Positions 18,944 through 37,898 are shown, numbered from the stretch's first letter. The stretch: 64,000 nucleotides of DNA from a bacterium (GCA_031362565.1 JANLSU010000039.1:128001-192000); one strand, 5' to 3'. Numbers and translations are program-made. Notes: a model not told the origin generated them from the letters alone.

Positions 18944-21900
18944 TCAAGATTGGTAGAGCGCGCTTTCACGCACCCCGACGTCGAGCCGCGTGATGTGACC
19001 GAGTCGTTCGAAGAGCGCTCGGCTGAGGCCGGCGTCGAGCCGGTCACCGGCGAGAGTGGCCGCGCTGCCGTCGCTGGTGTGGACGCGAATCCAAGCCGTA
19101 TCCTGGCTCAGCTCGTAGACGATCGGCACCTGACAATAACTGAACGCAAGTGCCCCAGCCGGCACGTCGATGGAGCGATACACTGCACTCCGATCGAAGA
19201 AGTTGTACGTACCCGGTTCCCGCCGGAATTCGTTGCGCCTCAGGAGTGCGGGACGGAAGGCGATGATGCCACGCTCGACATCGACACCCAACTCGCCGAA
19301 CCGGGTGAGGATATCCTCTTTGACCTGTCCAGTCACACCGGGCTGCTGGGCGCCGGCGTGTGATGGCGTATGCGAATAGGGGTCGGTCGGAAACGCGCCA
19401 TACTCTTGGACTGTTTTCTCGAAACCCAGGCCGGCGCGGATTCGGTAGTAATTCTGCGCCAGCGCGCCGGTGAGCGCCACGGGCTCGGCCTCCCGCGTCG
19501 CGCGCAGCGCCAGCTCTTGCACGGCGAGCAGGAGCTTCGACACCATGTGCCAGTAGACGCAGCCCAGACCCTCGTAACCATACATGCTGCCCGAGCGGCC
19601 GGTGAAAGCGTGATGGCGAAAGACCGTCTCGAAGACGTCGAGCACCGCCTGGCGGTCGCGTGCGACATGCTCCGACCAAGCATCGCGCGCCGCGAGGTGA
19701 TCCAGGGCTGAACCCAGGTCGAGTGCATTCTTGAAGTCGGCATGGAACCGGTACGCTCCGAGCGCATCGCGTTCCACAATCGAATTCTCCTTGGCTTCAA
19801 CCAGGTTCCGCAAGAGCGGCACGCTGCGCACGTGCTCGTCGGGAACGACGTTCCGCTCGATGAACCCCGGGAGCTCACGCTCCGGATACAGCAAGAAACT
19901 GCGTTGGTCGGCCCGGTACATGCGGCTCCGGAACAAGCTTGTGAGGACCTGGAGCGCGTCGACGGGACTCACGACTCCGGAGCTCAACACGGCCACTTGT
20001 CCCTCGAGCATCTCCTCCAGGTGCCGAATCGCGATCTCAGGCCGATCCGGCGTCATCTGCAGCAGGTTGTACGAGTGGTAGAGACCATCGGGCCGCTGGT
20101 TGGCACGAATCGCATGGTCGAGATACTCCAAGGCGACGCGGCAAAGCGCCCCGATCTCCGCCACTGGAATCGCTTCCCTGCCGGAAAATCCGCGCGCGTA
20201 GACCGCCGCGCGGTATTCCGAGAATGTCCGGCCCAAAGCATCCATCAACTGCCGGCGATCGACATCCTGCACTTTGTCCGACGCGAGAACCCCGCGGTTC
20301 GCACTCAGGATCTTGTGCACTTGCTGCAACCAAAGCACAACCTCGGCCGACATCTGCACCGCGGTGGGTCCCAGAGGCGCCACGAGGCCTTCGAGAAACG
20401 CCAGGTACCGGCGCAGATAGCACAGGGTGACCATCGAGATTCCGTTGCCCACGAGCGCATTGTTCGCGTCGTTCCATTCCGGCCGCTGGGTGTTCATCCA
20501 AATACCGGCATCCGGCACCAGGTTCGAGAGTTTCGAGAGCGCCGGAACCACGAGCTTCTCGAGCAAATTGACGTGATACACCGATCCGTCGCGACCCGGC
20601 ACGAGCTTCCCGTCGGTCCCGATGGCGCGGACACGGTCGGCGATCCGCTTGGCCAGTTCCGCGTCGTAGACGACTGTCGAGCGCGGGTCTTGCAGCATTT
20701 CCTCGTATGGTTTGACCCGGTACGGAACGTCCGCGTAGCAAAAAACCTCGCGATCGAGCAGATCCTCGAGTTTGCCGGGCACAAAGTTCGCCAGCGCCTC
20801 GAGAAACTTCAGCAGGTAGACGATCTGGTGGTCGCCCCAGTATCCGATGCAACTCCACGGATCATCCGGGTCGGCGACCTCCCAATCGATACCCTCATGG
20901 GTAATTCGATACGGATTGAACCCATCGATGGTGGACGCGTTGACGAACTTGGCGATGAAACTCGGCAGGAAACAGGGAAAGCTCCGGGCGAGCGCCTCCC
21001 AGTTCTGAAAGATGTCCCGCCAGTTGCCCTCGTAACGCAGGGCACGGCTACCGTCCGGGTTCCGGGTGCGAATCGAAAAGCGATTCCAGGGCCGGCTGGG
21101 ATCGCCATGCCGGCGGCCAAAGTAGATCGGCAGGTACTCGTGGCACAGTCGTTCGAGATCCGGATCCTGGGTGCGGGCGGCCGCGGCGGCCAGGTCCGGC
21201 AGGAGAATCTCAGCCGGTAGGGCTGCCAGGAAAGCGTGATTGCGGCCGGCGGCCACGCGGTTCCGTGCCCGCAGACTCGCCGCAAGATCCGCCGTCGAGA
21301 TGCCGTAGTCGTGCGCGAACGTACCGCCCCGCATGTTGTTGAACACGACGCATGCCAAGTGATGACCAGCGGCCTCACGTTGGCCGGTGAGCTGGATTCC
21401 ATCGGCATTGCCGGCATTGCGGAGCAAGTTCCGGTTCGCGTTCAAGAGACTGTCTTCGATCGCGCGGTCGAGACCCGCCGCCTCTCCGAGGCGGCGGCGG
21501 AGGGCGGCAATTTGGACGTGGCTCTGGCCGGTATCGGCGACGACATGCCACTTCGCATGCGCCCCGGGTTCCAATTCGAGCCGCGCGGCGACAAGGTAGT
21601 TGCCGCGGCGCCCGGTCAAAGAATGCCCGTGGTGGACCGCCGCGCCGCGCCGGAACGCCGCAATCGCGTCCGCTGCAAGACAGACGTCGAAACCAGCGAG
21701 GCCGCAACTCCAAACCGTGTTGGCGCGCAGCTCTTCAGCTGCTTCGGGCCGGTCGATAATGCGCGCGGTGAGCGAGAAAACCCCGAGCCGCGTTTCTGGA
21801 TCGCAGTCGCTGCGTTTGTACGCATCGACCAGGCAACTCGACTGTTGATAGAGCGCGAGGGGCACGCCATGGGGCAGGACATTTCGCAAGCCGTCAAGGA

Positions 21901-22411
21901 CCGCCGCCCCGATCGCACCGGAACCTCGATTGGTAAGAGTCGCGGTACGCACCAGGCCGAACTCATCACTTCCGGCCCAGCGATACCGAAACACGAGACC
22001 GAGATCGTGATTGATCTCTTCGAAAAGAACCCGGTTGCCGAGCGGCGTCTTGTACAGATTCCGCTCGATGCGGAAGTCCTCCGCAGCGCGTTCGGAAAAC
22101 GGCTGCCACAAGACATCGCGCCTGGAGTGCCGTTGCAGCCGAATGAGGCTGATGGGGCCCGTGTGGTAATGGCCGTCGTGAAGCTTGTCGACCGTTTCGT
22201 AGGGAAACAGGCTGCCGTCGGGGTCCGTTCTCCCCGCCGTCAGGCCGCCGCCGGAACTGATGAACATCCACAGATCGGCGTCGCTGGTGATGCTCATCAG
22301 AAATGGCGGCAGCCGGTCGTAGGCGGAGATACGGTAATACTCCTCCCCGTCCACCAACGTGAACTCGCCGGCTGGCTCCGGGCGAGTCTGTGCGGCGCGA
22401 CCGATGGTCAA
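18944..22411 (-). CDS. GH149-type beta-1,3-glucan phosphorylase (1155 aa)
   Basis: Motifs LWMFISS.GGLTAGR, FGRRHGDPSRPWN, YEGNWRDIFQNWEAL, WMNTQRPEWNDANNALVG, EMLEGQVA, YEGLG..YWHMVSKL, YGAFPTDPYSHTP, QQPG.TGQVKE. No signal peptide. AGGAG before the TTG start. Confidence 0.85.
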   Translation of the reverse strand: MTIGRAAQTRPEPAGEFTLVDGEEYYRISAYDRLPPFLMSITSDADLWMFISSGGGLTAGRTDPDGSLFPYETVDKLHDGHYHTGPISLIRLQRHSRRDVLWQPFSERAAEDFRIERNLYKTPLGNRVLFEEINHDLGLVFRYRWAGSDEFGLVRTATLTNRGSGAIGAAVLDGLRNVLPHGVPLALYQQSSCLVDAYKRSDCDPETRLGVFSLTARIIDRPEAAEELRANTVWSCGLAGFDVCLAADAIAAFRRGAAVHHGHSLTGRRGNYLVAARLELEPGAHAKWHVVADTGQSHVQIAALRRRLGEAAGLDRAIEDSLLNANRNLLRNAGNADGIQLTGQREAAGHHLACVVFNNMRGGTFAHDYGISTADLAASLRARNRVAAGRNHAFLAALPAEILLPDLAAAAARTQDPDLERLCHEYLPIYFGRRHGDPSRPWNRFSIRTRNPDGSRALRYEGNWRDIFQNWEALARSFPCFLPSFIAKFVNASTIDGFNPYRITHEGIDWEVADPDDPWSCIGYWGDHQIVYLLKFLEALANFVPGKLEDLLDREVFCYADVPYRVKPYEEMLQDPRSTVVYDAELAKRIADRVRAIGTDGKLVPGRDGSVYHVNLLEKLVVPALSKLSNLVPDAGIWMNTQRPEWNDANNALVGNGISMVTLCYLRRYLAFLEGLVAPLGPTAVQMSAEVVLWLQQVHKILSANRGVLASDKVQDVDRRQLMDALGRTFSEYRAAVYARGFSGREAIPVAEIGALCRVALEYLDHAIRANQRPDGLYHSYNLLQMTPDRPEIAIRHLEEMLEGQVAVLSSGVVSPVDALQVLTSLFRSRMYRADQRSFLLYPERELPGFIERNVVPDEHVRSVPLLRNLVEAKENSIVERDALGAYRFHADFKNALDLGSALDHLAARDAWSEHVARDRQAVLDVFETVFRHHAFTGRSGSMYGYEGLGCVYWHMVSKLLLAVQELALRATREAEPVALTGALAQNYYRIRAGLGFEKTVQEYGAFPTDPYSHTPSHAGAQQPGVTGQVKEDILTRFGELGVDVERGIIAFRPALLRRNEFRREPGTYNFFDRSAVYRSIDVPAGALAFSYCQVPIVYELSQDTAWIRVHTSDGSAATLAGDRLDAGLSRALFERLGHITRLDVGVRESALYQS

Positions 22412-22478: not shown

Positions 22479-23903
22479 TTACTTCATCAGCACCATGTTG
22501 TGCGCCAATTTACCCGCCGAGGTTGTCAGCACGTACCGATAAATCCCCGTTGCGGCGGTGCCGCCATTCGTCGTCTTTCCATCCCACACCACAGCGTGTG
22601 GGCCCGGCTCCACAGTGCCGCGCAACAGAGTCGCCATCCGCCGGCCGGCGACATCGTAAATGCTCAGGTCCACGGTGTCCGCCTGCGGCAGATCGAACGC
22701 AATGCGAGTCGACGGATTGAAAGGGTTCGGTACGTTTTGATGCAGCCAGAGACTGGCGGCGGGCGTGCCGGGAGCAACGTCCGTCGGGCCTTGTTGCCGG
22801 AACAACACGTCATCGATGAACATCGCTCCGCCGGATATCGTTGGCGAAACGAAGAGAATATACGCTTGTACCGACGCGGTGCCTGCCGGAGCCGGGGGGG
22901 ATCTCAGGACATGCTGCGTCCATGTTCCAAGCGGCGCAGCGTGGTCGATGATCACCGTTTGGCTCGAGCCGATCTCGGTGTTGGCGGCATCGCGGAACAC
23001 GATCTTGGCGAGCCCGAGGTTGTCGTTGGTCCCGGAAATGGGGCCGTCCTGGCACGTGGTCAGCGAGTAGACATCGAGCTTCCATTTCGATCCCGGCGCC
23101 GCCGCAAAAGCCTGATACATGCCGGAATCGGAACCCAAGACAAACGTCGAGAACAACTTGGCGGCGCCGGCCGGCGTACGGGCTGCGAATGCGCGCCCGT
23201 CGTACAGCGCGTTGCCGAACGTGGTCCAGCCGTTCAGGCTGGTGGCAAAACTCGAGTTGGCCAGGAGATTGGATTCCGCGGCGCCCGGCGTCAGCTCGAC
23301 GAACGACGTGTCATCCACGTAGACCGCTCCGCCATCGCAGGCCGGCTGCAGGTACAGGAACATGGCCTGCACACGCAATGCGCCGGGAGGAACCGGCGCC
23401 GACACCGAGAAGGCGTTCCACTGGTTGCGAATCGAGTTGCCGTCACCGATGACGACTTCGTTCGAAGAAATCTCGGAGCCGCCACCCGCAGCATTGAAAA
23501 AGACGATCTTCGCGATCATGCGGTTCTTGTTGCAGGTGTCGGTGCCCGGAATAGGGTCGGCACTCGACACGTACGAATAGCCGCTCAGCCGATAAAGCTT
23601 GCCGGGCGTCGGTGCGAGGAGGGATTGGAAGCAACCACTGACGTTGAACCCCCCAGGACCGGGACAGCCCGGGAATGCTCCGAAGATCTTCGACGCGGCA
23701 ACGCCGGTGCGAATGATGTTGTCTCCCGCCGGCAGCGACAACGCCACATTGTTCCCAGGAAAAGTGGACCAGCCGTTGTACGAGCCGCCTGCCGCCTCGA
23801 AGCCGGGGTTGGTCAGGAGATTGGCCTGCGCGAACGATTGTGACGCGATGGCCAATGCGGCCACGAACGTCAACGGAAGCGAAGCGTTCAAGAGGCGCTG
23901 CAT
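22479..23903 (-). CDS. Secreted protein with two CBM-like domains and FlgD/T9SS-like CTD (474 aa)
   Basis: GAGGAGG RBS, signal peptide, tandem domains NLLTNPGFE...GGAVYVDD and NLLANSSF...GGAMFIDD, then QNVPNPFNP...WDG...ATGIY...NMVLMK. Confidence 0.85.
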   Translation of the reverse strand: MQRLLNASLPLTFVAALAIASQSFAQANLLTNPGFEAAGGSYNGWSTFPGNNVALSLPAGDNIIRTGVAASKIFGAFPGCPGPGGFNVSGCFQSLLAPTPGKLYRLSGYSYVSSADPIPGTDTCNKNRMIAKIVFFNAAGGGSEISSNEVVIGDGNSIRNQWNAFSVSAPVPPGALRVQAMFLYLQPACDGGAVYVDDTSFVELTPGAAESNLLANSSFATSLNGWTTFGNALYDGRAFAARTPAGAAKLFSTFVLGSDSGMYQAFAAAPGSKWKLDVYSLTTCQDGPISGTNDNLGLAKIVFRDAANTEIGSSQTVIIDHAAPLGTWTQHVLRSPPAPAGTASVQAYILFVSPTISGGAMFIDDVLFRQQGPTDVAPGTPAASLWLHQNVPNPFNPSTRIAFDLPQADTVDLSIYDVAGRRMATLLRGTVEPGPHAVVWDGKTTNGGTAATGIYRYVLTTSAGKLAHNMVLMK

Positions 23904-24069
23904 CGTGACCCTCCTCAGGTGAAGCACCGGGAACGAATCTCGTTGCGAATCGGTGTCGATCTCGATCCCGACTCGATGGCGCGCGGCCGTGTCGCGGCGC
24001 GCCAGGACTCCAGACGACACCCGGCGCGCCTGCTTGTGGACCCATAGGGGGCGGAGGCCGATGCGTGTC

Positions 24070-24118
24070 TTGACAGTCCTATTGGGATCCTACACTATGT
24101 TCGATAGGCGAACAAAGT
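24070..24118 (+). promoter_or_regulatory. Palindromic operator copy 2 with overlapping sigma70-like promoter
   Basis: TTGACA (24070-24075), N17, CACTAT (24093-24098). ACTATGTTCG-ATAGG-CGAACAAAGT at 24094-24118, 25 bp before the ATG at 24144. Confidence 0.8.
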
Positions 24119-24143
24119 CCCTTTTTTCGTGGCGAGGCACCGG

Positions 24144-25151
24144 ATGCAGGCCGATCGCACATTGCCGCAGGCCCCGTTGCTCGAACTGTGCGGCATCCGC
24201 AAGACTTTCACCTCGACCGGGCTGTTCGCGGCCGCGCGCCGCGTTGTCGCCGCGTCCGACGTCTCGTTCGCGATCGAGCGCGGACAGGCCGTGGCGTTGG
24301 TCGGCGAATCGGGTAGCGGCAAGAGCACCCTCGCACGGCTCGTCCTGCGGCTCGAAAACCCGGACGTTGGCGAGATTCGTCTCGACGGCCTGGATATGCT
24401 GGCCCAGGAGCCTCGTGGAGCTTCCCTTGGCTATCGCGCCCGCGTGCAAATGGTGTTTCAGGACCCCTTTGGCTCGCTGAACCCAGTCCACGACGTCTTC
24501 CATCATTTGGAGCGACCGCTGCGGCGCCATCACCGGGCAGAGCCTGCGAACGTGCGAGCGCGGGCCCTGGAACTGCTGAATATTGTCGGCCTCGAGCCGG
24601 CCGAGGACTTCATCGACCGGCGTCCGTACGAACTGTCGGGCGGGCAGCGCCAGCGAGTCGCCATCGCCCGCGCCCTCGCGGTGGACCCCGACCTCCTGGT
24701 CGCCGATGAGCCGACGTCGATGCTCGACGTGTCGATCCGCATGGGGGTTCTGAACCTTCTCGCGCATCTCAAGCGCGACCGGCACCTCGCCATCCTGCTC
24801 ATCACGCACGATCTGGCGTCGGCGCGTTACCTGGCGGACCGCGTCCTTGTTCTCTATCGCGGCCGGGTCGTGGAAGAGGGCTCGACCAACGCCGTGATCG
24901 AGACGCCGGCCCACCCTTACACGCGTGCGCTTCTGGCTTCCATCGCCGGCGACGCAGCGGACACGCAGCGGACCGCGCCGCGATGGGTCGAAGCCTCGAG
25001 TGGCGAAGAAACCCACGGCTGTCCGTTTGCGCCGCGCTGCCCCGACGTGCTCGACATTTGTCACACCGAGGATCCGCCGCCGCGGACTGCGAACGGCCGC
25101 CAAGTTCGCTGCCACCTGTACCCGCAAAACGCGCCGGCATCCGGGAGCTGA
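24144..25151 (+). CDS. Opp/Dpp-family ABC ATP-binding subunit (OppF-like)
   Basis: GESGSGKS, LSGGQRQR, LLVADEPTSMLD, ITHD, HPYT and Cys-rich GCPFAPRCP...C...VRCHL. Confidence 0.95.
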   Translation: MQADRTLPQAPLLELCGIRKTFTSTGLFAAARRVVAASDVSFAIERGQAVALVGESGSGKSTLARLVLRLENPDVGEIRLDGLDMLAQEPRGASLGYRARVQMVFQDPFGSLNPVHDVFHHLERPLRRHHRAEPANVRARALELLNIVGLEPAEDFIDRRPYELSGGQRQRVAIARALAVDPDLLVADEPTSMLDVSIRMGVLNLLAHLKRDRHLAILLITHDLASARYLADRVLVLYRGRVVEEGSTNAVIETPAHPYTRALLASIAGDAADTQRTAPRWVEASSGEETHGCPFAPRCPDVLDICHTEDPPPRTANGRQVRCHLYPQNAPASGS

Positions 25152-25157: not shown

Positions 25158-26546
25158 ATGGGCACGCACGTTTTCCCGCCAGGGTTTTTATGGGGTGTGG
25201 CGACATCCGCCCCACAGATCGAGGGCGGGTTCGCGGCAGGCAAGCGTGGAGAGTCCATTTGGGACCGCTTCGCCGCGACTCCCGGTCGGATCGCCGACGG
25301 TTCCAACCCCACGATCGCGTGCGATCACTACCATCGATGGCCGGAGGATGTCCGGCTCTTGCAGTGGCTCGGCGTTGGAGCCTACCGATTCTCGATCGCC
25401 TGGCCGCGGGTGCTGCCGGCAGGCCGCGGCCCAATCAACACGGCCGGACTCGACTTCTACGACGGTCTCGTCGATGCACTTCTGGATGTCGGCGTTGAGC
25501 CGTTCGTGACGCTGTACCACTGGGATCTGCCCCAGGTTTTGCAGGATGAAGGCGGCTGGGGCGCGCGCCATACGGCAGAGGCGTTCGCGGCCTACGCGGC
25601 TGTCGTGGCGAAACGCCTCGGCGACCGCGTGCACCGCTGGATCACCCACAACGAGCCCTGGTGCGTCTCCGTCCTCGGGCACGAAGAGGGCCAGCATGCG
25701 CCCGGCCACCAAGACCCCGCGGAAGCGGTGCGCGTCGCGCACCATTTGCTGCTTTCACACGCCTGGGCGAGGGATGCGGTGCGCCAGAACGCGCCCGGAT
25801 CCGAGGTTGGAATCACGCTCAACCTCACGCCCGGATATCCCGCCTCCGAAAGCGACGCCGACCGTTTGGCGACGCACCGTTTCGACGGCTTGTTCAACCG
25901 CTGGTTCCTCGATCCGCTCTTCCGCGGTTGTTATCCCGCGGACACGGTGGCGGACCGGATTCGCCGCGGCCACGTCGAATCCGACCTGCCATTCGTGCAG
26001 GACGGTGATCTGCGCGCCATCGCGGCACCGATGGATTTTCTGGGCGTGAACTACTATAGCCGCGCCATCGTCCGCGCCGATGCTGCGGGCGACCCGATCG
26101 CGGTGCCGCTGCCTCCACAGACCGAGCAGACCGCAATGGAATGGGAAGTCTTTCCCGAGGGGCTCTACGATCTTCTCGCCCGCATTTGGCGCGAGTATCG
26201 TCCGCCAAAGATCTACATCACCGAGAATGGCGCTGCTTACCTCGACGAGGTCGAGGTTGGAGGGCACGTCTCCGACGTGCGCCGCGTCGAATTCCTGCGC
26301 CGCCACCTCGCCGCAGCACACCGTGCAATTGCCGCCGGGGTACCACTTCACGGTTATTTCGCTTGGTCACTTCTCGACAACTTTGAATGGGCCGAAGGCT
26401 ACGCGAAGCGTTTCGGCCTGTACCGCGTCGACTTTGCCACGCAGGAACGCACCGCCAAAGAAAGCGCCATCTGGTATCGCGACGTCGCGGCCACAAGTGC
26501 GGTCGACGACAGAATGGATCCGGCCACCGCCAGGAGGCTCCCATGA
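25158..26546 (+). CDS. GH1 beta-glucosidase, cytoplasmic (462 aa)
   Basis: FLWGVATSAPQIEG, YRFSIAWPR, TLYHWDLP, THNEP, ITENG, WSLLDNFEWAEGY.KRFGL. Confidence 0.96.
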   Translation: MGTHVFPPGFLWGVATSAPQIEGGFAAGKRGESIWDRFAATPGRIADGSNPTIACDHYHRWPEDVRLLQWLGVGAYRFSIAWPRVLPAGRGPINTAGLDFYDGLVDALLDVGVEPFVTLYHWDLPQVLQDEGGWGARHTAEAFAAYAAVVAKRLGDRVHRWITHNEPWCVSVLGHEEGQHAPGHQDPAEAVRVAHHLLLSHAWARDAVRQNAPGSEVGITLNLTPGYPASESDADRLATHRFDGLFNRWFLDPLFRGCYPADTVADRIRRGHVESDLPFVQDGDLRAIAAPMDFLGVNYYSRAIVRADAAGDPIAVPLPPQTEQTAMEWEVFPEGLYDLLARIWREYRPPKIYITENGAAYLDEVEVGGHVSDVRRVEFLRRHLAAAHRAIAAGVPLHGYFAWSLLDNFEWAEGYAKRFGLYRVDFATQERTAKESAIWYRDVAATSAVDDRMDPATARRLP

Positions 26547-29500
26547 CACCGAACCGTCGACACGCCGTCGCGGCGATTACTGCGATCGCTGCACTCCTCA
26601 CAACGGCGCGTGCCTCGGCACAAGCCGCCGACGCACCTCGGACGAGCGTCGTCCGCGTTGCGGCCGATGCCGCCGGGACGAAGCTCCAGGTCGACGGCAA
26701 GGACTTCATGGTGTTCGGAATGAACTGGGACTACTGCCCCATCGGTCAGAACTACAATTACGGCCTGTGGGGCCAGCCCGACGACATCATCGAGGCGGCG
26801 CTCGGCCGCGAGATGCCGCTTCTGAAGGGCATGGGTGTGAACGCGATCCGCGTCTACGTCGGCATCCCGCCGCGCTGGGTGCGCTACATCTACGAGCACT
26901 ACGGCATCTACACCGTGATCAACCATCCAATCGCCCGCTACGGGTACACGCTGGATGGCGTTTGGATTCCCTCGGTCGACTACTCCAGCCCGCGCCTGCG
27001 CGCGGCGCTGGCCGCCGAAATAACGGCCCTGGTCGACCAGTTTCGCGGTGTGCCCGGCGTCCTCATGTGGCTGCTGGGAAACGAGAACAACTATGGTCTC
27101 TCGTGGACCTCGTTCGAGATCGAAGCGCTACCTGCCGGTGAGCGCGATGCAGCCCGCGCCCGCCAACTCTATTCGCTTTTCGGGGAAATCATCCGCACCG
27201 TCAAGGCGCACGATCCCGACCGCCCGGTCGCCATCGCCAACGGCGATGTGCAGTACGTCGATATCATCGCGCAAGAGTGCAAAGGGTTAGACGTCTTCGG
27301 GACCAACGTCTACCGCGGCATCTCCGCCCGCGACCTTTTTCAAGTCGTCCACGACAAACTGGGCGTCCCCGTGATGTTCACCGAGTTCGGCTCGGATGCG
27401 TGGAACGCCAAGGACATGCGCGAGGATCAGATCATGCAGGCGCGCTACCTCGTCGGCCAGTGGCGCGAGATCTACGAACAGTCGAGCGGCAAGGGACGCG
27501 TGGGCAACGCGATTGGTGGTTTTGTATTTCAGTGGAGCGACGGCTGGTGGAAGTTCGGCCAGGAAAGCCGCCTCGACATCCACGACACTAACGCCTCGTG
27601 GCCCAACGGCGGCTATGTGGAGGATTTCGTGCCGGGCCGCAACAACATGAACGAGGAGTGGTGGGGCATCTGCGCCAAGGGCCAACCGGATGACCGCGGT
27701 TTGTACGAAGAGTACCCGCGCGCCGCATACTATGCACTACGACGGGCGTTACGGCTGGATCCGTACGCACCGGGAACGGATCTCGCGGTGATCCAGGGGC
27801 ACTTCGCCGCCTGCGACCCGGTGTTGTCCGGCCTCGAAGCACGCGGCGACCGCGCCAGTCTCGCGGCCGATGGGCTCGAACGCGTGCGGTTGAGCGGATT
27901 GCGGCTCGAGTTCGAGACCTTCAGCACCGGTGGATCCCGCATCACGACGCCGCGCGCGTCGGCGCCGCAGGCAAGTCTGCCCTCCTACCTCGGCTTCGAC
28001 CATCTCGAGTCGTTCTATGCGGACGTGCAGGTGCAGCCCAATCCCAGTGTGACGGGCACGGTGTCATTCAACGTCTTGGGGCACGTCCCACTCAACCGCA
28101 TCGACCAGATCAACTACGAGAACCGCGGCCGGACGCGCACGGTCCTGACGGATGAAGCGCCGCCGCCTGGGGGATTCGAGCCGCCGCTGCAGCTGGAGGG
28201 AATCGAACGGGTGAAAGTGTACCGCGGCAATGTCTCATGGGACGCCCCCCGGTTTCAGCTCGAGGGCTTCTACCGCACCGGCCACACGCATTGGGGCTAC
28301 GAAGGCGACTTCTTCGGCCTGTATCGCGATGCGTACTACGGCACGAACATCGATATCTACAATGGCGAAGCGCCGGTGGGCATCGAGATGAGCGGCAAGG
28401 GCGGGCTTGCAGGTTGGAAACTCGCTTTCGGCCCGCAATTGTGGTGGGGCGCCAACCCGGCTTTTTTGCTGAAGTACCGCCACAACATCGGTTCCTTCGA
28501 CACCGCCGCCCTGTTCCAAGAGGACATCGCCAACCAATCCTCCGTCACGTCCTCGAACGCTGTGCCGCCACGGCGTACGCGCAAAGCGACGCTGCAAATG
28601 AAAACCCGGCGCGGTCCGCTCGGCATCGAGGTCGGTGGCATCTGGGCCGGTTCGCCCCGCGTCGACGAGAGCTTTCAAATCGCTGCAGGAACGTCCGGCA
28701 ACTATCGCATTCTGCAGGACCACGTCGTTGCGACCGATGCCCTCGGCGTCAAAGGCAAGGTGACGGTAGAACGTGGCCTTTGGCATTGGTACGCGCAGGC
28801 CGCATATATGGGACTCGTCGCCGACGGCGGTCCAACCGCGCCCATCACGTTCACTGGATGGAGCCTCAAGGACACCGGTTCGGGCAACCAGACGAACGCC
28901 ATTACCGGCTTGGCGGTCAACTTCGGGAATTTCCAGTTCGGTCCCAATTTTCTCTGGCAGAAACCGATCGTGGGGCCGGTTCCGGGCGACGTTCAGTCAC
29001 CCGGGCGGCCGCGCAACATTCTCGACGACCCTTTTGCGGTGCGCGCCAACCGCGAGACCGTCGGCGGCGAACTGCTCCTCGCATATGACCCGACGCCGGC
29101 CACGTGGATGTGGGCATGGGACAATGACGTGCGCGAAGACGCCCGCCTGGCCGCGAGCCTGGGCCTAGCGATTCGCCACTTGCCCACCACTCAAGACGCC
29201 AGTATTGGCATTCAGGCCGACGGCCGCACGACGTTCCCGTTCCCAGGCGCGCCACCGCCACGCGACTTGTGGGAGGCACGGACGCGCCTGGTGTCGCGAC
29301 TGCGGAGCGATATTCGCATGGTGACGCATCTCTTCGCCGGCGCCGGCGAACCGAATGGCAATGACCCGCGGGTCGTGCATCGCTATGGCGCCGACACCCG
29401 GCTCGCCTGGGGATCCATGACGCTGGCGACGGCCGCGAAGTGGAACGACTGGGGACCGTACGACTACCATCGCGACGGTAACCTGACGTTCCCGGTGCAA

Positions 29501-29680
29501 CTCATGGGCGATCTGTCTTACACGCTCGGAACACCGCGGTGGTTCGATTTCCCGCAAACCCAAGTCGGGGCGCGTGCGGCATGGCGAACCCTGGACAACC
29601 ATTCACCGCGCTTGGTCACGGCGCCCGGGAAAAACGGTCGCGAATGGGAGATCCGGACATACCTGCACGTGGGTCTGTGA
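26543..29680 (+). CDS. Secreted clan GH-A TIM-barrel glycosidase (GH2/GH158-like) fused to a ~600-aa beta-rich, probably outer-membrane barrel domain (1045 aa)
   Basis: AGGAGG RBS and ATGA overlap with GH1; signal peptide; GVNAIRVY, WLLGNENNY, MFTEFG, FQWSDGWWK, NEEWWGI. C-terminal region of alternating-hydrophobic strands ending WEIRTYLHVGL. Confidence 0.8.
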   Translation: MTPNRRHAVAAITAIAALLTTARASAQAADAPRTSVVRVAADAAGTKLQVDGKDFMVFGMNWDYCPIGQNYNYGLWGQPDDIIEAALGREMPLLKGMGVNAIRVYVGIPPRWVRYIYEHYGIYTVINHPIARYGYTLDGVWIPSVDYSSPRLRAALAAEITALVDQFRGVPGVLMWLLGNENNYGLSWTSFEIEALPAGERDAARARQLYSLFGEIIRTVKAHDPDRPVAIANGDVQYVDIIAQECKGLDVFGTNVYRGISARDLFQVVHDKLGVPVMFTEFGSDAWNAKDMREDQIMQARYLVGQWREIYEQSSGKGRVGNAIGGFVFQWSDGWWKFGQESRLDIHDTNASWPNGGYVEDFVPGRNNMNEEWWGICAKGQPDDRGLYEEYPRAAYYALRRALRLDPYAPGTDLAVIQGHFAACDPVLSGLEARGDRASLAADGLERVRLSGLRLEFETFSTGGSRITTPRASAPQASLPSYLGFDHLESFYADVQVQPNPSVTGTVSFNVLGHVPLNRIDQINYENRGRTRTVLTDEAPPPGGFEPPLQLEGIERVKVYRGNVSWDAPRFQLEGFYRTGHTHWGYEGDFFGLYRDAYYGTNIDIYNGEAPVGIEMSGKGGLAGWKLAFGPQLWWGANPAFLLKYRHNIGSFDTAALFQEDIANQSSVTSSNAVPPRRTRKATLQMKTRRGPLGIEVGGIWAGSPRVDESFQIAAGTSGNYRILQDHVVATDALGVKGKVTVERGLWHWYAQAAYMGLVADGGPTAPITFTGWSLKDTGSGNQTNAITGLAVNFGNFQFGPNFLWQKPIVGPVPGDVQSPGRPRNILDDPFAVRANRETVGGELLLAYDPTPATWMWAWDNDVREDARLAASLGLAIRHLPTTQDASIGIQADGRTTFPFPGAPPPRDLWEARTRLVSRLRSDIRMVTHLFAGAGEPNGNDPRVVHRYGADTRLAWGSMTLATAAKWNDWGPYDYHRDGNLTFPVQLMGDLSYTLGTPRWFDFPQTQVGARAAWRTLDNHSPRLVTAPGKNGREWEIRTYLHVGL

Positions 29681-29681: not shown

Positions 29682-30641
29682 CTACTTCGCGAGGTGGCAG
29701 GCGGCCGCGTGACCGGGGCGGTACTGGACGAGCTCCGGCGTGCGTACGCGGCAGAGATCCACGGCTACGGCGCAACGCGGGTGGAAACGACAGCCCGCGG
29801 GTGGGTTGCGCAAACTCGGTGGCGTGCCTGGGATACTCGCGAGTTCCACGGCGCCGCCGTGTAACGCCGGAAACGCCCGCAGGAGTCCTTGGGTGTAAGG
29901 ATGCAGCGGCGCGCGCCGGAGCTCCGCCACCGGCGCGATCTCGACCAGCCGGGCGGCATAGAAGACCGCGACACGGTCCGAGAACTGCAGCATGCGCGCC
30001 AGGTCGTGGGTGATCAATATCACGGCGAAACCCAGCCGACGCTGCAGGGCGCGGATCTGCTCGAGGATTTCGCGTTCGACGATCACATCCAGTGCGGTCG
30101 TGGGCTCGTCCAGAATGACCAAGGCGGGTTCCAGCGCCAGGGCCAGCGCGATGTTCACCCGCTGCCGCATGCCACCCGACAGTTGGTGTGCATAGGAGTC
30201 GAGCCGGTCGCCGGGCATCCCGACCATACGCAAGAGTTCCGCGGCTCGGGTGCGCGCCGCGTCGCGGCTCGGCGCGTCATGCGCGAGAAGTGTATCGACG
30301 ATCTGCTCGCCAACCGTGATCACCGGGTTCAGTGCGTCCATCGCGCTCTGAAAAACCATCGAAATGCGTTTCCAACGCAGGGTGCGCAATTCCGGCTCGG
30401 GGAGCGACAGCAGATCGCGTCCTTCGAATTGGACACTGCCGCCTGAAATGACCGCCGGCGGCGGCAGGATACGCAGCAGTGCCTGCGCCATGGTGGACTT
30501 GCCGCTGCCCGACTCGCCCGCGACACCCAGGATCTCGCCTGGTCCGACGTCCAGCGAAACGTGATCGATGGCGCGCACCGGCCCTTGGTCTGTGATGTAA
30601 TCGATGCAGAGGTCGCGAATGGACAGGATTGGTTCAGTCAC
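29682..30641 (-). CDS. Opp/Dpp-family ABC ATP-binding subunit (OppD-like)
   Basis: GESGSGKS, LSGGMRQR, ILDEPTTALD, HPYT, GCRFHPRC. GTG start overlaps the permease end. Confidence 0.95.
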   Translation of the reverse strand: MTEPILSIRDLCIDYITDQGPVRAIDHVSLDVGPGEILGVAGESGSGKSTMAQALLRILPPPAVISGGSVQFEGRDLLSLPEPELRTLRWKRISMVFQSAMDALNPVITVGEQIVDTLLAHDAPSRDAARTRAAELLRMVGMPGDRLDSYAHQLSGGMRQRVNIALALALEPALVILDEPTTALDVIVEREILEQIRALQRRLGFAVILITHDLARMLQFSDRVAVFYAARLVEIAPVAELRRAPLHPYTQGLLRAFPALHGGAVELASIPGTPPSLRNPPAGCRFHPRCAVAVDLCRVRTPELVQYRPGHAAACHLAK

Positions 30642-31575
30642 GATCCAACACCACCGGCGTCGAACGCGTCGGCTGCTGATGCCGAACGACAAGATACTTG
30701 CGCCAGGCGCGCTCCAACTGCAACCGCGGATTGGTGACTTCGTCAAACCCGGAGTTGAGCATCGTCAGACCAAAGCCCACCAGCGCCACACACAGCCCAG
30801 TGGGCGCGAACGTCCACCAGGCACCGGTGAGGAGCGCTGCGTCATTTTGTGCCCAGTAGAGATTCGTTCCCCAGGTCACGGCAGAAACGTCGCCGAGGCC
30901 CAGGAACTCGAGCCCTACCTGCGCGCCGATCGCGTACACCGTGCTGCCGATGACCTGCGCCACCAGCAACGAAGTCATGTTCGGCAGAATCTCACGCGTC
31001 ACGATGCGGAAGTTCGACTCCCCCGACACGACCGCGGCAGCGACAAAATCGCGTTTGCGCAACGCCAGCGTCTGGGCGCGGATGACGCGGGCGTTCCACG
31101 CCCACCCGGTGACGATGAGGACGAGCGCCAGCGTGAACGGCCCGGAGGGCAGGTACGCGGCGATGACGATCGCAAGCGGCAGCCCGGGGATGACCAGGAA
31201 AATGTTGAAGAGCAGCGAGAGGATCCCGTCGACACGCCGGCCGAAGTACCCAGCCGTGACACCGACGAGCGCCCCCACGAACACGACGATCACGCCCACT
31301 CCGAAACCGATCGCGAGCGAAATCCGAGTCCCGGTCACGACCTGGGCCAGCACGTCTTGCCCCTGGCCCGTTGTTCCGAGCCAATGCGCCACCGAGGGCG
31401 GCTGCAGCGGTATCCCGACGAGAGCATCCGGTTCGCCGACGAACCACCGGCCGAACAATGCGATGGCTGCAAAGAAAGCCAGAACGACTGCACCGATCGT
31501 CGCCTTGCGGTCGCGGCGAATCGCCATCCACCAGGCGGCCACGCCAGTCACCTTGCGGTCCAGAGCGGCGCTCAC
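30634..31575 (-). CDS. Opp/Dpp-family ABC permease (OppC-like)
   Basis: HWLGTTGQGQDV, multiple TM helices, EAA-type loop DFVAAAVVSGES, FLGLGD...WG. GTGA overlap with the upstream permease. Confidence 0.95.
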   Translation of the reverse strand: MSAALDRKVTGVAAWWMAIRRDRKATIGAVVLAFFAAIALFGRWFVGEPDALVGIPLQPPSVAHWLGTTGQGQDVLAQVVTGTRISLAIGFGVGVIVVFVGALVGVTAGYFGRRVDGILSLLFNIFLVIPGLPLAIVIAAYLPSGPFTLALVLIVTGWAWNARVIRAQTLALRKRDFVAAAVVSGESNFRIVTREILPNMTSLLVAQVIGSTVYAIGAQVGLEFLGLGDVSAVTWGTNLYWAQNDAALLTGAWWTFAPTGLCVALVGFGLTMLNSGFDEVTNPRLQLERAWRKYLVVRHQQPTRSTPVVLDRD

Positions 31576-32555
31576 GATGACGACTCCCGGGTGCGCGGAT
31601 CGAGCCACAGGTAAACCAGGTCGACGACCCAGTTCGCGCCCAGCACCGCCAGCGTGATCACCAAGAAGATGCCCTGCATGAGTGGGTAGTCCTGGTTCCG
31701 CACCGCCTGCACCAGCAAGTACCCTTGGCCCGGGTAGGAAAAGACGATCTCGGTGAGCAGCGATCCGCCCAATACGAAACCCAGCGCCATACCGAAGCCA
31801 GTGACACTGGGGAGCAAGGCATTACGAGCCGCGTAGCGGAACGCCACCCGCGATGGGCGGACGCCCTTCGCACGGGCCAGATTGACATAGTCCGACCCGA
31901 GGATCGCGATCATGGTGTTGCGCATGGTGAGCAACCATCCACCCAGAGTGGCCAGCACCACGGTCGCAACCGGCAGCACCGCGTGCCGCGCGACGTCCGC
32001 GAGGAACGCGGCTGAGAAACTCGGCGTCAGGTCATCGGCGTACGCGTGTCCGAGTGGCAGCCAGCCGAGCGAAAACCCGAACACGTAGAGAGCCACCATC
32101 GCCAGCCAGAAATACGGGAATGAACCCAGAAAAGCGAAAGTGGAAGGCAGCCAAGTATCGATCCAACCGTGGCGCCACCAGGCCGAAGCGATGCCAAGCA
32201 GGGTGCCGATCGCGAAGCTGATCAGGACCGCCGAGCCCGCGAGAAAGAGCGTCCACAGAAGGCCGGTGCGAATGACGTCCGCGACCGGCGCCGGGAAATA
32301 GGCGACTGAAATGCCAAGGTCACCGCGCATGACGTGCCCGAGGTATGTGAAATATTGCCCCAAGAGCGGCGCATTCGTCAGGCCAAAGGCCGCCCGGAGT
32401 GCCTGCATCGCCTCCGGGGCGAGCCGGCCGTGGAAACGCGCGAAAAGCGCCGTGGCAGGGTCGCCCGGCATGAGGCGCGGCAAGAAGAAGTTCAGTGTCA
32501 CAGCCAGCCACGCCGCGAGAAGGTAAAAGCCGAACCGCCGCAAGATGTAGCGCAT
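31572..32555 (-). CDS. Opp/Dpp-family ABC permease (OppB-like)
   Basis: MRYILRR...RLMPGDPA, GDLGIS, DYVNLARAKG, YPGQG, DYPLMQG, LDPR. Confidence 0.95.
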   Translation of the reverse strand: MRYILRRFGFYLLAAWLAVTLNFFLPRLMPGDPATALFARFHGRLAPEAMQALRAAFGLTNAPLLGQYFTYLGHVMRGDLGISVAYFPAPVADVIRTGLLWTLFLAGSAVLISFAIGTLLGIASAWWRHGWIDTWLPSTFAFLGSFPYFWLAMVALYVFGFSLGWLPLGHAYADDLTPSFSAAFLADVARHAVLPVATVVLATLGGWLLTMRNTMIAILGSDYVNLARAKGVRPSRVAFRYAARNALLPSVTGFGMALGFVLGGSLLTEIVFSYPGQGYLLVQAVRNQDYPLMQGIFLVITLAVLGANWVVDLVYLWLDPRTRESSS

Positions 32556-32564
32556 GCACTCCTC

Positions 32565-34234
32565 CTAGCGTGGGGCAAGCGTGGTGAGGACCAAGAGGCA
32601 CTCGCCCCGGTCGAGTTTGTTAGGAGAAGGATCGGCGTACGGTTCCGCGGCCGAGGGGAACCCGGTGAAGCGGCTCGTGTTGTACTCCGCCCAAGAAGGA
32701 TTCGGATACAACGGGATTGCTGGAGCTTCGGCAACGAAGGTGCGCTGCAGCGCGTCGCTCAGTTCGTGCTGACGCGCCGGATCGGGTTCGCGCTCGAATG
32801 CCGTGAGCGCCCGGTCGGCCGCCGGGCTTCCGTAACGATGCCAGTTCCCCATCGACGGCGTGCCGATCGGGCCTACCGTCGCCGAAGACATGAACCAGCG
32901 ATAGAACGAATACGGCGTCGGCCCCTCGAACGAGTATCCCATGCTGAGATCGAAGTTTCCTTCTTGGACCCGCTGGAACCAGGCGCTGAAATCATAGGTG
33001 CGAACGGTCGCCTTGATGCCCACGTCACGCAGCCCGCGCGCGATGACTTGCGCGGCGCGCACCCAATCCGACCAGCCGGAGACCGTGAGGATTTCGTATT
33101 GCCACGGAGCACCGTCGGGCAGGCGGCGGATGCCATCGGTGCCGCGCCGATAACCTGCTTCGTCCAAGAGCGCGCCGGCGCGTGCCACGTCGTGGCGCAC
33201 CCAATCACCGCTCGCAGCGATATCGGCGTTGCGCCACGCCGAATAGGCATCGCTCAAACCAGTGGCGTCGCAGGGGCGCGAGTACCGGTACAAGGCCACG
33301 TCGACGAGGAGGTCGCGATCGATGGCCATGCTGAGTGCCTTCCGCACTGGCACCTTGTCGAACGGCGTACGCGTCGTATTGGCGTAGAGAAAGATGCTGC
33401 TGCCGGTGAGTGGAAACCAGTAGTGATGCGACTGCGGCTGGCGGCGCACGAAGACGCGGTCGATGGCGGGAATGAAATTCCCCGCCCAGTCGACCTCATC
33501 AAAGACCAGTGCGAGGTTGGCGCGGTCATTGCCGGGGTAGGCAGGAAAGCGCAGCGCCTCGACCTTGGGCAAACCGGCTTGCCAGTAGCGCGGATTGCGA
33601 CCGAGTTCGTAGACCTGGTTCTGGAAAACCCGCACTTCCGTGAACGGCCCGGTCGCGACCGGGTGCTCGTTGGCATACGTGACCGGATCCGGAACGTCCT
33701 TCCAAGTGTGCTCGGGCACGATCTGCTGCGCAGCAATCTCGTCGAAGCCCGGGATGAAGACGCGCTGGAATCGAAAATCGACCGTGCGTTGATCGACAGC
33801 CTGCACGCCGGCCAAAAAGCCCCAGACGCCACGCCGATCGAGCGCCCGGTGCCGTTGCAGGAGTTCGAACGTAAAGGCCACATCTCGCGCCGTGAACGGC
33901 TGCCCGTCCGACCATAGAACGCTGTCGCGCGTCGTGACCCGTAGCACGAGGTTGTCTTCACGCCACTGACGCTCGAGCGCCAGCCACGGCACGAACTTGG
34001 CCTGCAGGCTATTGAAGACGAAGAGCGGTTCGTAGATCCCCGCGAGAGTCGGCCATCGCGCCGCGGTGGCGGTCGTCAAGGGATTGAAGTTGCGCACCCA
34101 TGAGGCCTGCTGCTCCTGCGAAACCACGAGGACTCCGCGCGGCGGATGCGGGCGGTCCTGAGCGCACGCCGCGGCCAGGACGGCCGCAAGAGCGAACGTG
34201 AACCGGGCAGCGCTCTGGACCCGGGCGGCGGCGT

Positions 34235-34238
<4 letters not shown>
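32565..34238 (-). CDS. Family 5 solute-binding lipoprotein, probably oligosaccharide-binding (557 aa)
   Basis: Lipobox LAAAC; RNFNP, IYEPL, WSDGQPFTARDVAFTF, PVATGPF, GWSDW, PAIPLY. ATGA overlap with GH16. Confidence 0.92.
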
Positions 34239-35058
<820 letters not shown>

Positions 35059-35062
<4 letters not shown>

Positions 35063-36294: not shown

Positions 36295-36353
36295 CGCGGC
36301 TGCCTTCGTCAATCGCCCATCGCTTCGTACCGGCACGTCCACCCCCGCGGCCC

Positions 36354-37847: not shown

Positions 37848-37898
37848 TCTTTGTTCGGATCTCGAACAAAGAATGGACGGCCCGGCTGGGCCTGTCAA
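37848..37898 (-). promoter_or_regulatory. Palindromic operator copy 3 with overlapping sigma70-like promoter
   Basis: Perfect arms TCTTTGTTCG-GATCT-CGAACAAAGA at 37848-37872. On the minus strand, TTGACA (37898-37893), N17, CATTCT (37875-37870), facing the operon that contains the ROK gene. Confidence 0.85.

Follow-up and report, generated by a model that had tools for sequence, protein, structure and literature searches.

Organization and N-Terminus of the Fusion Gene

The 64,000-nucleotide stretch GCA_031362565.1 JANLSU010000039.1:128001-192000 from a bacterium (hereafter the window, meaning the whole stretch of DNA that was analyzed, with positions counted from its first letter) was examined with emphasis on the gene at 26543-29680 (+), in which a glycoside hydrolase (GH) of clan GH-A is joined to a predicted outer-membrane beta-barrel and which lies among genes for the use of beta-1,3-glucans. 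According to the translation, the frame is free of stops over 1045 codons and gives a protein of 1045 amino acids, with the following parts:

26543..29680 (+): predicted GH-A glucanase/outer-membrane barrel fusion, whole gene (P0001); open frame, single genome copy
26543..26620 (+): Sec-type signal peptide, residues 1-26, probable cleavage between ASA and Q, no Cys; read by eye
26639..27811 (+): clan GH-A (beta/alpha)8 catalytic domain, residues about 33-423; Pfam PF02836, VIA, Foldseek
27083..27085 (+): Glu181 in LGNENNYG, predicted acid/base; invariant in 40/40 relatives, aligns with the GNE motif of BuGH158 (PDB 6pal)
27383..27385 (+): Glu281 in FTEFG, predicted nucleophile; invariant in 40/40 relatives, aligns with ITEWG of BuGH158
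27818..27883 (+): linker helix, residues 426-447, poorly conserved; DSSP on the model
27884..29677 (+): predicted transmembrane beta-barrel, residues 448-1045, 26 long strands, end YLHVGL; AlphaFold2 (AF2) models and fold searches

A longer open reading frame (ORF) from an upstream ATG at 26387 also exists. The start at 26543 is preferred because its ATGA overlaps the stop codon of the preceding GH1 gene, because AGGAGG lies 5 nt upstream, and because the alignment of relatives begins at residue 1. All ten motifs quoted in a preliminary description of this locus were recovered in the translation of 26543-29680, including GNENNY (residues 179-184), FTEFG (279-283), SFYADVQVQP, TGTVSFNVLG, LGIEVGGIW, WHWYAQAAY, GGELLLAYD, LMGDLSYTL, and the C-terminal WEIRTYLHVGL. 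The N-terminus, MTPNRRHAVAAITAIAALLTTARASA followed by QAAD, is by eye of the Sec signal peptide type, with a basic n-region and a hydrophobic core; the hydrophobic stretch spans residues 8-26, and since the signal region contains no Cys, the protein lacks a lipobox. A Pfam scan found no FlgD_ig domain in the fusion protein, a domain that is carried by three other proteins of the window (22479-24020, the GH16 enzyme at 16874-18922, and 7085-14851). Both properties, a signal peptide without lipobox and the absence of a FlgD C-terminal domain, had been proposed in the preliminary description and hold.

Catalytic Half of the Fusion Protein

The sole Pfam family matched by the fusion protein was PF02836 (GH2 TIM barrel), over residues 87-290 with an E-value of 7.5e-6 and 25.7 bits (cut-off 21). 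The GH2 accessory domains that precede such a TIM barrel (PF02837/PF22666, PF00703) gave no Pfam match in the protein at E<=1. The public name 'GH2 TIM barrel-domain containing protein', which members of the family carry alongside 'glycosidase', 'beta-galactosidase', and 'hypothetical protein', is therefore a domain label only. Likewise, NCBIfam and PDB sequence searches returned only weak beta-galactosidase-like similarity over the same stretch as PF02836, and the NCBIfam beta-galactosidase models scored 12-15 bits compared with cut-offs above 1200.

In the AF2 model, the catalytic domain begins about 7 residues past the signal peptide. When the full-length model was searched with Foldseek, the GH domain matched BuGH158 (3.1e-13), with GH158(Pro) and LaGH157 also listed, while the VIA search with the same model reported the GH domain only (residues 32-440), with LaGH157 at Z 28.6, a GH2 enzyme (6ncw) at Z 27.4, GH158 (9oro) at Z 27.2, and a GH5 mannanase at Z 27.0. 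Profile comparisons gave E-values of 1.6e-4 and 8.5e-3 for GH158 (6pal and 9oro), 1.2e-4 for GH5 (4awe), and 1.5e-4 for GH2 (1yq2). In the profile alignment to BuGH158 (6pal), Glu181 falls on GIGNE and Glu281 on ITEWG, and both residues are invariant among the 40 close relatives in which they were counted, in agreement with the GH-A domain with two catalytic glutamates that had been read from the sequence beforehand. The N-terminal half is thus, as far as its sequence tells, an intact clan GH-A retaining hydrolase of ambiguous CAZy family (GH5/GH2/GH158).

The best structural matches were the GH158/GH157 endo-beta-1,3-glucanases (BuGH158, 6pal; GH158(Pro), 9oro/9p25/9p26; LaGH157, 9fz9), which share the (beta/alpha)8 fold of clan GH-A, with a Glu acid/base behind strand 4 and a Glu nucleophile behind strand 7, align their NE(N) acid/base and TE(F/W)G nucleophile motifs with those of the fused enzyme, and are likewise found in beta-1,3-glucan loci. 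In contrast to these similarities, the identity is only 14-21%. The available text on GH158/GH157 mentions no membrane or porin part; in that of PMC13195107, the words 'porin', 'outer membrane', and 'membrane' occur 0 times.

Predicted Structure of the Barrel Half

The full-length AF2 model had a mean predicted local distance difference test score (pLDDT) of 90.6 and a predicted template modeling score (pTM) of 0.65. When the barrel was folded alone from an alignment of 58 sequences, one compact domain was obtained with a mean pLDDT of 91.5 and a pTM of 0.88. Both models contain 26 long antiparallel strands (448-1044) joined exclusively by hairpins, and the first modeled strand, at residue 448 (base 27884), lies where the domain boundary had earlier been placed (about 27880). 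The 22-residue helix 426-447 continues directly into strand 1, without an intervening turn. Each of the eight turns of 2-3 residues is situated at an even-to-odd strand junction, and seven loops of 18, 44, 34, 18, 26, 31, and 26 residues are at odd-to-even junctions; since this parity, in which short turns face the periplasm and long loops the outside, is porin-like, both termini of the barrel are assigned to the short-turn side.

The domain-only barrel model was compared with 48,161 chains in a VIA fold search, and all 50 of the rows listed were membrane beta-barrels, with no soluble fold among them. These matches included AlgE (Z 14.5), OmpM1 (Z 13.9), OpdQ (Z 13.8), MOMP (Z 13.6), FimD (Z 13.1, 356 residues aligned), PapC (Z 12.3), YncD (Z 11.6), maltoporin (Z 11.4), SusC (Z 11.3), PelB (Z 11.2), PgaA (Z 10.5), and MtrB (Z 9.6, 393 residues aligned over 10-606), down to AIDA-I at rank 50 (Z 8.6, 169 residues aligned). 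The longest alignments were to barrels of 22-26 strands (strand numbers from general knowledge), no family stood apart, and TonB-dependent transporters resembled the barrel at the level of the fold only (Z 9.6-11.6). Foldseek gave PfeA (5e-11) and further listed MOMP, BtuB, AlgE, LptD, OpdQ, chitoporin, PapC, and maltoporin, all of them membrane barrels. The structure prediction and Foldseek check that the preliminary description had suggested for the C-terminal region therefore returned membrane barrels and no soluble beta-sandwich, and on these models the C-terminal approximately 600 amino acids are very probably an outer-membrane barrel.

In mean column conservation, the GH domain (0.68) exceeded the barrel (0.54) and the linker helix (0.40). 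Several barrel loops (0.63-0.79) are more conserved than most strands (0.42-0.69), and such loops would suit the lining of a specific channel rather than an anchor.

Regarding sequence families, the region beyond residue ~440 had no match in Pfam, NCBIfam, or PDB (phmmer/hmmsearch). Among 17 barrel-only sequences, none matched any Pfam porin family (LamB, OprB, OprD/Occ, KdgM, Porin_4) or DUF6029 at E<=1, and the fusion protein matched no porin family in Pfam either. Similarly, the fusion protein showed no match at E<=1 to the TonB-dependent barrel, the plug, or SusD (PF00593, PF07715, PF07980), and none in Pfam to the autotransporter barrel (PF03797); the TonB-dependent models themselves did detect 11 receptors elsewhere in the genome. 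The nearest families by language-model features were DUF6029 (0.93, 159 shared), TprD/MOSP (0.91), and Porin_4, all outer-membrane families and taken as leads only. Two leads on the identity of the barrel were not borne out: DUF6029 (PF19494)/Wzi (PF14052), with 0/17 by hmmscan at E<=1, and a Wzi-like protein, with a probability of 0.09% when the standalone barrels described below were compared by hhalign with the window's own Wzi-like protein. The latter is a 556-aa outer-membrane protein at 44516-46186 (-) (PF14052, E 5.1e-11), unrelated in sequence to the barrel. The barrel thus constitutes a putative outer-membrane protein family that has no Pfam model and matches no known family.

Additionally, the C-terminus (...IRTYLHVGL) resembles a beta-signal, with alternating hydrophobic residues. 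The host is a diderm with 10 Omp85 matches in its genome, and four of the 11 TonB-dependent receptors of that genome end in L (..EFGL, ..GSKL, ..AMGL, ..SYKL) and six in F, so that ...YLHVGL can be regarded as a normal local beta-signal. The comparison with the genome's own receptors also upholds the earlier reading of WEIRTYLHVGL as beta-signal-like. Across the family, the last residue is L, F, I, M, W, or Y in 75/81 members. We infer an outer-membrane location for the fusion protein.

The Beta-1,3-Glucan Regulon of the Window

The genes and putative operators surrounding the fusion gene are listed below.

2369..3673 (+): GH17-like glucanase with signal peptide; PF00332, E 1.7e-7
15928..15944 (+): copy of the putative operator ahead of the gene at 16073 and of the secreted GH16 gene; perfect palindrome
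16874..18922 (gene downstream of an operator copy): secreted GH16 with FlgD_ig C-terminal domain; Pfam
18944..22411 (-): GH149 beta-1,3-oligosaccharide phosphorylase (cytoplasmic); PDB 6hq6, E 0, 1147 bits, residues 19-1152
22479..24020: FlgD_ig-tailed protein, two genes upstream; Pfam
24098..24114 (+): palindromic putative operator TGTTCG-N5-CGAACA, 14 nt ahead of the ATPase gene that opens the ATPase-GH1-fusion operon; also seen as an inverted repeat
24129..25151 (+): Opp-type ATP-binding cassette (ABC) ATPase, first gene of the operon; Pfam ABC_tran, oligo_HPY
25158..26546 (+): GH1 beta-glucosidase without signal peptide, stop overlapping the fusion start; PF00232, E 9.9e-162
29682..34238 (-): distal part of the convergent operon, with second ABC ATPase, two permeases, and SBP_bac_5 binding protein; Pfam
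34235..35062 (-): small GH16 with lipobox-like LLGGSSSC; PF00722
35059..36501 (-): ROK-family regulator with winged-helix domain; PF00480, E 1.8e-52
36354..37772 (-): 472-aa lipoprotein (MRLRIAFLLVATASIAVLATTGC...), weak Big_2 match, candidate surface glycan-binding partner; translation, DNA
37852..37868 (+): copy of the putative operator in the promoter of the lipoprotein-ROK-GH16-ABC operon; perfect palindrome

The fusion gene is the last of a three-gene operon (ATPase, GH1, fusion) and is translationally coupled to GH1. An operon converging on it encodes the lipoprotein, the ROK regulator, the small GH16, a lipobox-bearing substrate-binding protein (SBP), two permeases, and the second ATPase. 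For the SBP_bac_5 gene, whose ORF spans 32565-34658 (-), the probable start is Met141, followed by an LAAAC lipobox (…LAAVLAAAC); a binding protein of the lipoprotein type is unusual for a diderm. The palindrome TGTTCG-N5-CGAACA has three perfect copies in the window compared with 0.23 expected, a number reached in 0/100 shuffles. The copies lie upstream of three gene groups of the locus, and the ROK regulator at 35059-36501 probably uses the palindrome as its operator. The fusion gene belongs to a ROK-controlled beta-1,3-glucan regulon together with GH16, GH17, GH1, GH149, and an Opp-type ABC importer, and the content of the locus (GH149, GH16, GH17) suggests beta-1,3 specificity for the fused enzyme as well.

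The genome (5.41 Mb, 100% complete by marker genes, one fusion copy) showed no SusD match over its whole length, and none of its 11 TonB-dependent receptors lies within the window. These two results agree with the 'missing outer-membrane step' of which the preliminary description had spoken. Among the 26 ORF translations of the window that were scanned, there was no match to a glycosyltransferase/synthase, an outer-membrane polysaccharide export (OPX) protein, or a polysaccharide co-polymerase (PCP).

The Neighboring Lipoprotein

The lipoprotein gene, read from its true start, gives MRLRIAFLLVATASIAVLATTGC..., and a lipobox Cys followed by an acidic motif of the (S)ERD type was present in 27/35 of its homologues (tblastn match >=300 aa). 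A Cys followed by an acidic motif resembles the surface-export signal of Bacteroidota lipoproteins. In a complex prediction between barrel residues 448-1045 and lipoprotein residues 24-310, the ipSAE was 0.38 (runs 0.29, 0.38, and 0.50) and the best of three controls 0.00, for a verdict of 'weak support'; the runs shared at least 40% of their contacts, and the pLDDT of the partner was at least 81. In the calibration of the tool, which applies only roughly here on account of the custom alignments, the mark was reached by 116/157 solved complexes and 2/215 mismatched pairs, and at an ipSAE of 0.60 or below by only 18/157 solved complexes and by both of the passing mismatches. A role of the lipoprotein as surface glycan-binding partner of the barrel is plausible on this model.

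Relatives and Conservation of the Locus

When one genome per species was considered, 597 of 601 pattern matches encoded relatives, so that the family is present in the genomes of at least 597 species. The 80 loci that were kept belong to Gemmatimonadota, Krumholzibacteriia, Eisenbacteria, Fibrobacteraceae, Ignavibacteria, Calditrichota, Rhodothermales, Myxococcota, and Bacteroidota, and cultured carriers include Algoriphagus kandeliae, Algoriphagus confluentis NBRC 111222, and Flavilitoribacter nigricans DSM 23189. Neighbors were counted by tblastn over these 80 loci, many of which are short: GH16 was found in 46/80, the lipoprotein in 42/80, ROK in 24/80, GH149 in 23/80, GH1 in 15/80, and GH17 in 12/80. 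Six diverse loci scanned in full showed the order regulator, fusion, lipoprotein, GH16, MFS_2 or ABC importer, GH149, and GH17, with no SusC/D in any of the six. Among the 51 loci of at least 12 kb, 123 ORFs of at least 600 aa besides the fusion and GH149 were accounted for (105 + 10 scanned and 8 homologues of the lipoprotein), and a TonB-dependent receptor appeared among such ORFs in only two loci (L034, L062). The neighbors in related loci are catabolic or importing (GH149, GH1/GH3, GH16, GH17, SBP/ABC or MFS_2 importers, and sugar repressors), and no polysaccharide synthase or co-polymerase was present among those scanned or among the 26 window ORFs.

In Gemmatimonadota-type loci, an MFS_2 carrier takes the place of the ABC importer (L034, L043, L044, and L045), so that the inner-membrane step is interchangeable while the barrel stays. 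A GH3 gene is situated directly 3' of the fusion, at ~11.1-13.5 kb, in the Gemmatimonadota-type loci L020, L024, L029, L030, L031, L034, L040, L041, L043, L045, L047, and L048. DUF5916 (PF19313) proteins of ~640-870 aa are encoded at L022:4304-6901, L024:5357-7708, L029:5315-7735, L030:4450-6831, and L054:15-1931. They lie upstream of the fusion in Longimicrobiales/Gemmatimonadota, adjoining it in L024 and L029, and at a greater distance in Flavilitoribacter, and may be a second conserved envelope component. In Bacteroidota, ORFs of ~950-1010 aa lie directly upstream of the fusion (L054:4878-7754(-), L055:4759-7611(-), L060:4928-7810(-), L066:4953-7988(-), L071:4870-7767(-), L072:4945-7806(-), L077:4740-7652(-)), together with ORFs of the same type at L068:4763-7594(+) and L069:13-2289(+). 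Most have no Pfam match at 1e-10, with a Y_Y_Y domain in L068 (943 aa) and in the contig-edge L069 (758 aa), and they are probably the regulator of the locus, BguR-like or a hybrid two-component protein.

Barrels Without the Enzyme

When 8000 candidates were scored with the C-terminal 606 aa alone, 4541 proteins matched at E<=1e-3, far more than chance would give, and an exhaustive search with this region yielded 446 clusters at 50% identity. Most full-length relatives are ~1000-1100 aa long, and PF02836 was detected (E<=0.01) in 10/32 of the cluster representatives scanned. Six sequences of 564-598 aa start with a signal peptide and end in ...YKF, YSF, KTF, or YTF; they are named 'hypothetical protein' of Pseudomonadales/Oceanospirillaceae and, in one case, 'beta-galactosidase'. 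A metagenome scan with these six standalone barrels as queries yielded 80 loci, of which 49 also encode the GH-A part. In 23 of these 49 the gene structure was checked, and 23/23 had one ORF, with no split between GH-A and barrel genes.

In 16 of the 80 metagenome loci, the barrel is encoded alone by ORFs of 498-619 aa; all 16 end in F, and 13/16 have a signal peptide (lengths and signal peptides by the first-Met rule). These standalone barrels adjoin genes for SBP_bac_5, two permeases, two ATPases, LacI, glucokinase, GH1, and GH16. In gammaproteobacterial operons, the barrel is found alone beside an Opp-type ABC importer. Since the standalone forms are located in ABC-importer operons for beta-glucan, the barrel seems to have a passenger-free role in the same pathway. 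In one locus (L097:33-9407), the genes flanking a standalone barrel are not those of an importer but a 944-aa GH16 on one side and a type I secretion set (TolC/ABC/HlyD) on the other.

A quick IQ-TREE phylogeny of the barrel domain with SH-aLRT support (56 of 58 rows, two being dropped for coverage below 80%; midpoint root for drawing only) placed the six genuine standalone barrels in one clade (support 100) nested among fused forms, and many of the rows labeled 'alone' by their length are gene fragments. The nesting hints that the standalone forms arose by loss of the enzyme, a direction that the unrooted tree does not fix.

Proposed Function of the Fusion Protein

Taken as a whole, the fusion protein is likely to form an outer-membrane channel that is specific for chains derived from laminarin and to which a glucanase, probably on the periplasmic side, is tethered. 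On the models, we predict with good confidence that the barrel is a beta-glucan uptake channel and, with reasonable confidence, that the fused enzyme is on the periplasmic side. This placement is proposed because strand 1 begins on the short-turn side, because the standalone forms start at strand 1, and because N-terminal appendages of outer-membrane barrels are normally periplasmic. POTRA, plug, and TPR domains, for example, normally stay periplasmic when fused N-terminally to such barrels.

Regarding the mechanism, Sec would carry the fusion protein over the inner membrane, and the barrel assembly machinery (BAM) would insert the C-terminal ~600 residues in the outer membrane as a very large beta-barrel of about 26 strands. 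Secreted and lipid-anchored GH16 enzymes would free oligosaccharides outside the cell, and the conserved lipoprotein would probably act as the surface glycan-binding partner. The GH-A glucanase, structurally nearest to GH157/GH158 and tethered by the helix to strand 1, would be situated most likely at the periplasmic mouth, where it may trim incoming chains to a length that the Opp-type SBP and the ABC importer accept; in other phyla, an MFS carrier stands in for this importer. Breakdown would then be completed in the cytoplasm by the GH149 phosphorylase and GH1.

Several observations weigh against this proposal. All of the structural support is prediction, so that closure of the barrel, its exact strand count, the lumen size, and the path of the helix are provisional. 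The full-length pTM of 0.65 leaves the arrangement of enzyme and barrel unfixed, the VIA Z scores for the barrel are moderate (14.5 down to 8.6), and no solved barrel matches the whole length. Amphipathicity is only moderate in several strands, and a conserved 20-aa loop (residues 849-868) on the presumed periplasmic side breaks the short-turn rule. The periplasmic placement of the enzyme follows from topology rules, and neither its GH family nor its substrate is settled by sequence, as GH5, GH2, and GH158 tie near E 1e-4. In addition, a barrel of ~26 strands without a recognized plug would require a gate, and none was identified; the barrel-lipoprotein complex prediction is weak by the calibration of the tool; the 11 TonB-dependent receptors elsewhere in the genome could serve uptake; and L034 and L062 carry such a receptor near the fusion.

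The alternative that survives best, which we judge to be unlikely, is an autotransporter-like display, in which the barrel would anchor or secrete the enzyme, helix 426-447 would pass through the lumen, and the GH domain would cut laminarin at the cell surface beside the surface lipoprotein, with the products entering elsewhere or via the same barrel. The layout of enzyme, helix, and barrel in one polypeptide indeed mirrors type Va autotransporters (EstA, AIDA-I), in which an N-terminal enzyme or passenger is followed by a helix and a C-terminal barrel, and the 22-residue helix here directly precedes strand 1. Furthermore, the lipoprotein encoded nearby has a surface-type acidic motif after its Cys, and the Bacteroides GH158 enzyme is described as a cell-surface glycosidase in the available text of PMC7157763. 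However, the barrel is found without a passenger in 16 loci, AIDA-I aligns only at rank 50, the autotransporter barrel PF03797 gave no match, and the helix is the least conserved element (0.40) and joins strand 1 without a turn. The number of strands, about 26, also differs from the 12 of autotransporters, and, as a matter of general knowledge, N-terminal domains on outer-membrane barrels are normally periplasmic. The preliminary description had offered a porin with a tethered glucanase and an autotransporter-like anchor side by side; the former fits better, in view of the barrels that stand alone in ABC operons, the strand number, and the lack of an autotransporter match, and the latter does not hold up as well.

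An export machinery, in which the barrel would be a secretion porin of the AlgE/PgaA/BcsC/PelB type, the hydrolase a periplasmic editing enzyme (as AlgL, PgaB, BcsZ, and PelA), and the pathway one for a beta-glucan exopolysaccharide, is very unlikely. AlgE is the top VIA match, with PelB and PgaA also listed, and DUF6029, the nearest family by language-model features, is tentatively linked to polysaccharide export in the available part of PMC9603273. On the other hand, that family and the window's Wzi-like protein gave no sequence relation in the searches described above, no synthase/glycosyltransferase, OPX, or PCP match occurs among the 26 scanned window ORFs, and the conserved neighbors are catabolic and importing. 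The AlgE+AlgL, PgaA+PgaB, BcsC+BcsZ, and PelB+PelA pairs share with the proposed channel a polysaccharide barrel that works with a periplasmic glycan-cleaving enzyme; compared to them, the fusion would operate in the opposite direction, in one chain, with a larger barrel and with no synthase found nearby.

Finally, soluble beta-sandwich or carbohydrate-binding-module-like modules on a secreted or periplasmic glucanase, although beta-rich binding modules are common on glucanases and sequence searches of Pfam, NCBIfam, and PDB put no name to the region, can hardly account for a single domain of pTM 0.88 with hairpin-only topology, turns and loops alternating by side, only membrane barrels among the 50 VIA matches and the Foldseek matches listed, a C-terminal beta-signal like that of the genome's receptors, and standalone forms with a signal peptide and a terminal Phe.

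Comparison with Known Uptake Systems

In models of uptake by Gram-negative bacteria, the outer membrane is crossed either through SusC/D-like TonB-dependent transporters or through small porins. When compared to SusC/SusD with their surface glycan-binding proteins in the polysaccharide utilization loci (PULs) for laminarin of, for example, Formosa agariphila and Christiangramia forsetii, the channel proposed here would have the same task, the passage of beta-glucan fragments over the outer membrane, and its gene takes the corresponding position, directly behind the regulator and ahead of the lipoprotein and GH16 genes. The pairing of a barrel with a surface lipoprotein is weakly suggested here too. 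In contrast to SusC, the fusion has no plug domain and no TonB box, its N-terminal domain is an enzyme, and transport would presumably be energy-independent; the lipoprotein is beta-rich (weak Big_2), not alpha-helical like SusD. In Formosa agariphila, the regulator lies immediately upstream of SusC/D according to the accessible part of bioRxiv 10.64898/2026.01.10.698779, and in the Bacteroidota loci of this study, the fusion and the lipoprotein hold the position that SusC/D has there.

The LamB, ChiP, OprB, and Occ/OprD porins are passive, substrate-selective barrels encoded with a matching ABC importer, and OpdQ (Z 13.8) and maltoporin (Z 11.4) were among the fold matches. The fusion barrel differs from these sugar porins in its about 26 strands compared with 16-18 (the latter from general knowledge), in the absence of a sequence family match, and in the fused hydrolase. 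In comparison with type Va autotransporters, the fusion lacks the 12-strand barrel of PF03797, the Z score to AIDA-I is 8.6, and passenger-free forms of the barrel exist. Barrels of comparable size are LptD, MtrB (26 strands), and PapC/FimD (24; strand numbers from general knowledge), with alignments of 393 residues for MtrB, 362-368 for PapC, and 356-365 for FimD over about 5-606. These have no sequence relation to the fusion and an unrelated function, and they need a lumen filler (LptE, MtrA, or a plug domain), for which the conserved loops or the lipoprotein are candidates in the fusion barrel, as filler or gate.

Regarding GH149, the available text of PMC5827456 describes proteobacterial ABC-type clusters without any encoded outer-membrane transporter and reports that many Bacteroidetes GH149 genes are located in clusters of carbohydrate-active enzymes (CAZymes) without susCD. 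The fusion/barrel family would fill the outer-membrane gap of the GH149 clusters in that account, and it is a testable candidate for the outer-membrane step both in CAZyme clusters without susCD and in the proteobacterial ABC-type GH149 clusters.

A literature search, confined to open full text without bioRxiv supplements, turned up no account of a hydrolase-barrel fusion that takes part in beta-glucan uptake, and 'GH158' and 'porin' co-occurred in 0 papers; this is in line with the earlier remark that no characterized example was known. If confirmed, the barrel would be a new outer-membrane protein family, among the largest single-chain barrels, and a rare covalent fusion of a glycoside hydrolase to a barrel. 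A transport role would be invisible to PUL predictors keyed to SusC/D, because the public names are hydrolase labels or 'hypothetical protein'. The existence of cultured carriers makes genetics and biochemistry feasible.

A further step, which we regard as possible rather than probable, is that the family and the lipoprotein form a third, TonB-independent route of polysaccharide import beside SusC/D-type transporters and simple porins. In this tentative scheme, the lipoprotein would capture laminarin, its chains would thread through the ~26-strand barrel, and the periplasmic glucanase would cut the chains as they emerge, so that hydrolysis might act as a one-way, enzyme-driven ratchet that would not draw on inner-membrane energy. 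Laminarin-type beta-1,3-glucans rank among the most plentiful bioavailable glycans. If true, the route would be present in at least 597 species of Gemmatimonadota, Krumholzibacteriota, Eisenbacteria, Fibrobacterota, Ignavibacteriota, Calditrichota, Bacteroidota, Myxococcota, and Gammaproteobacteria and would be a sizeable unrecognized path in the turnover of a very abundant marine glycan.

Other Genes of the Window

Two large proteins are encoded at the left end of the window. The gene at 7085-14851 (-) encodes a secreted protein of 2588 aa with an M10 peptidase, Big_5 and TIG domains, several beta-propellers, and the FlgD_ig C-terminal domain mentioned above, and the gene at 3859-7047 (+), beside the GH17 gene, encodes a 1062-aa protein with TPR and CHAT domains.

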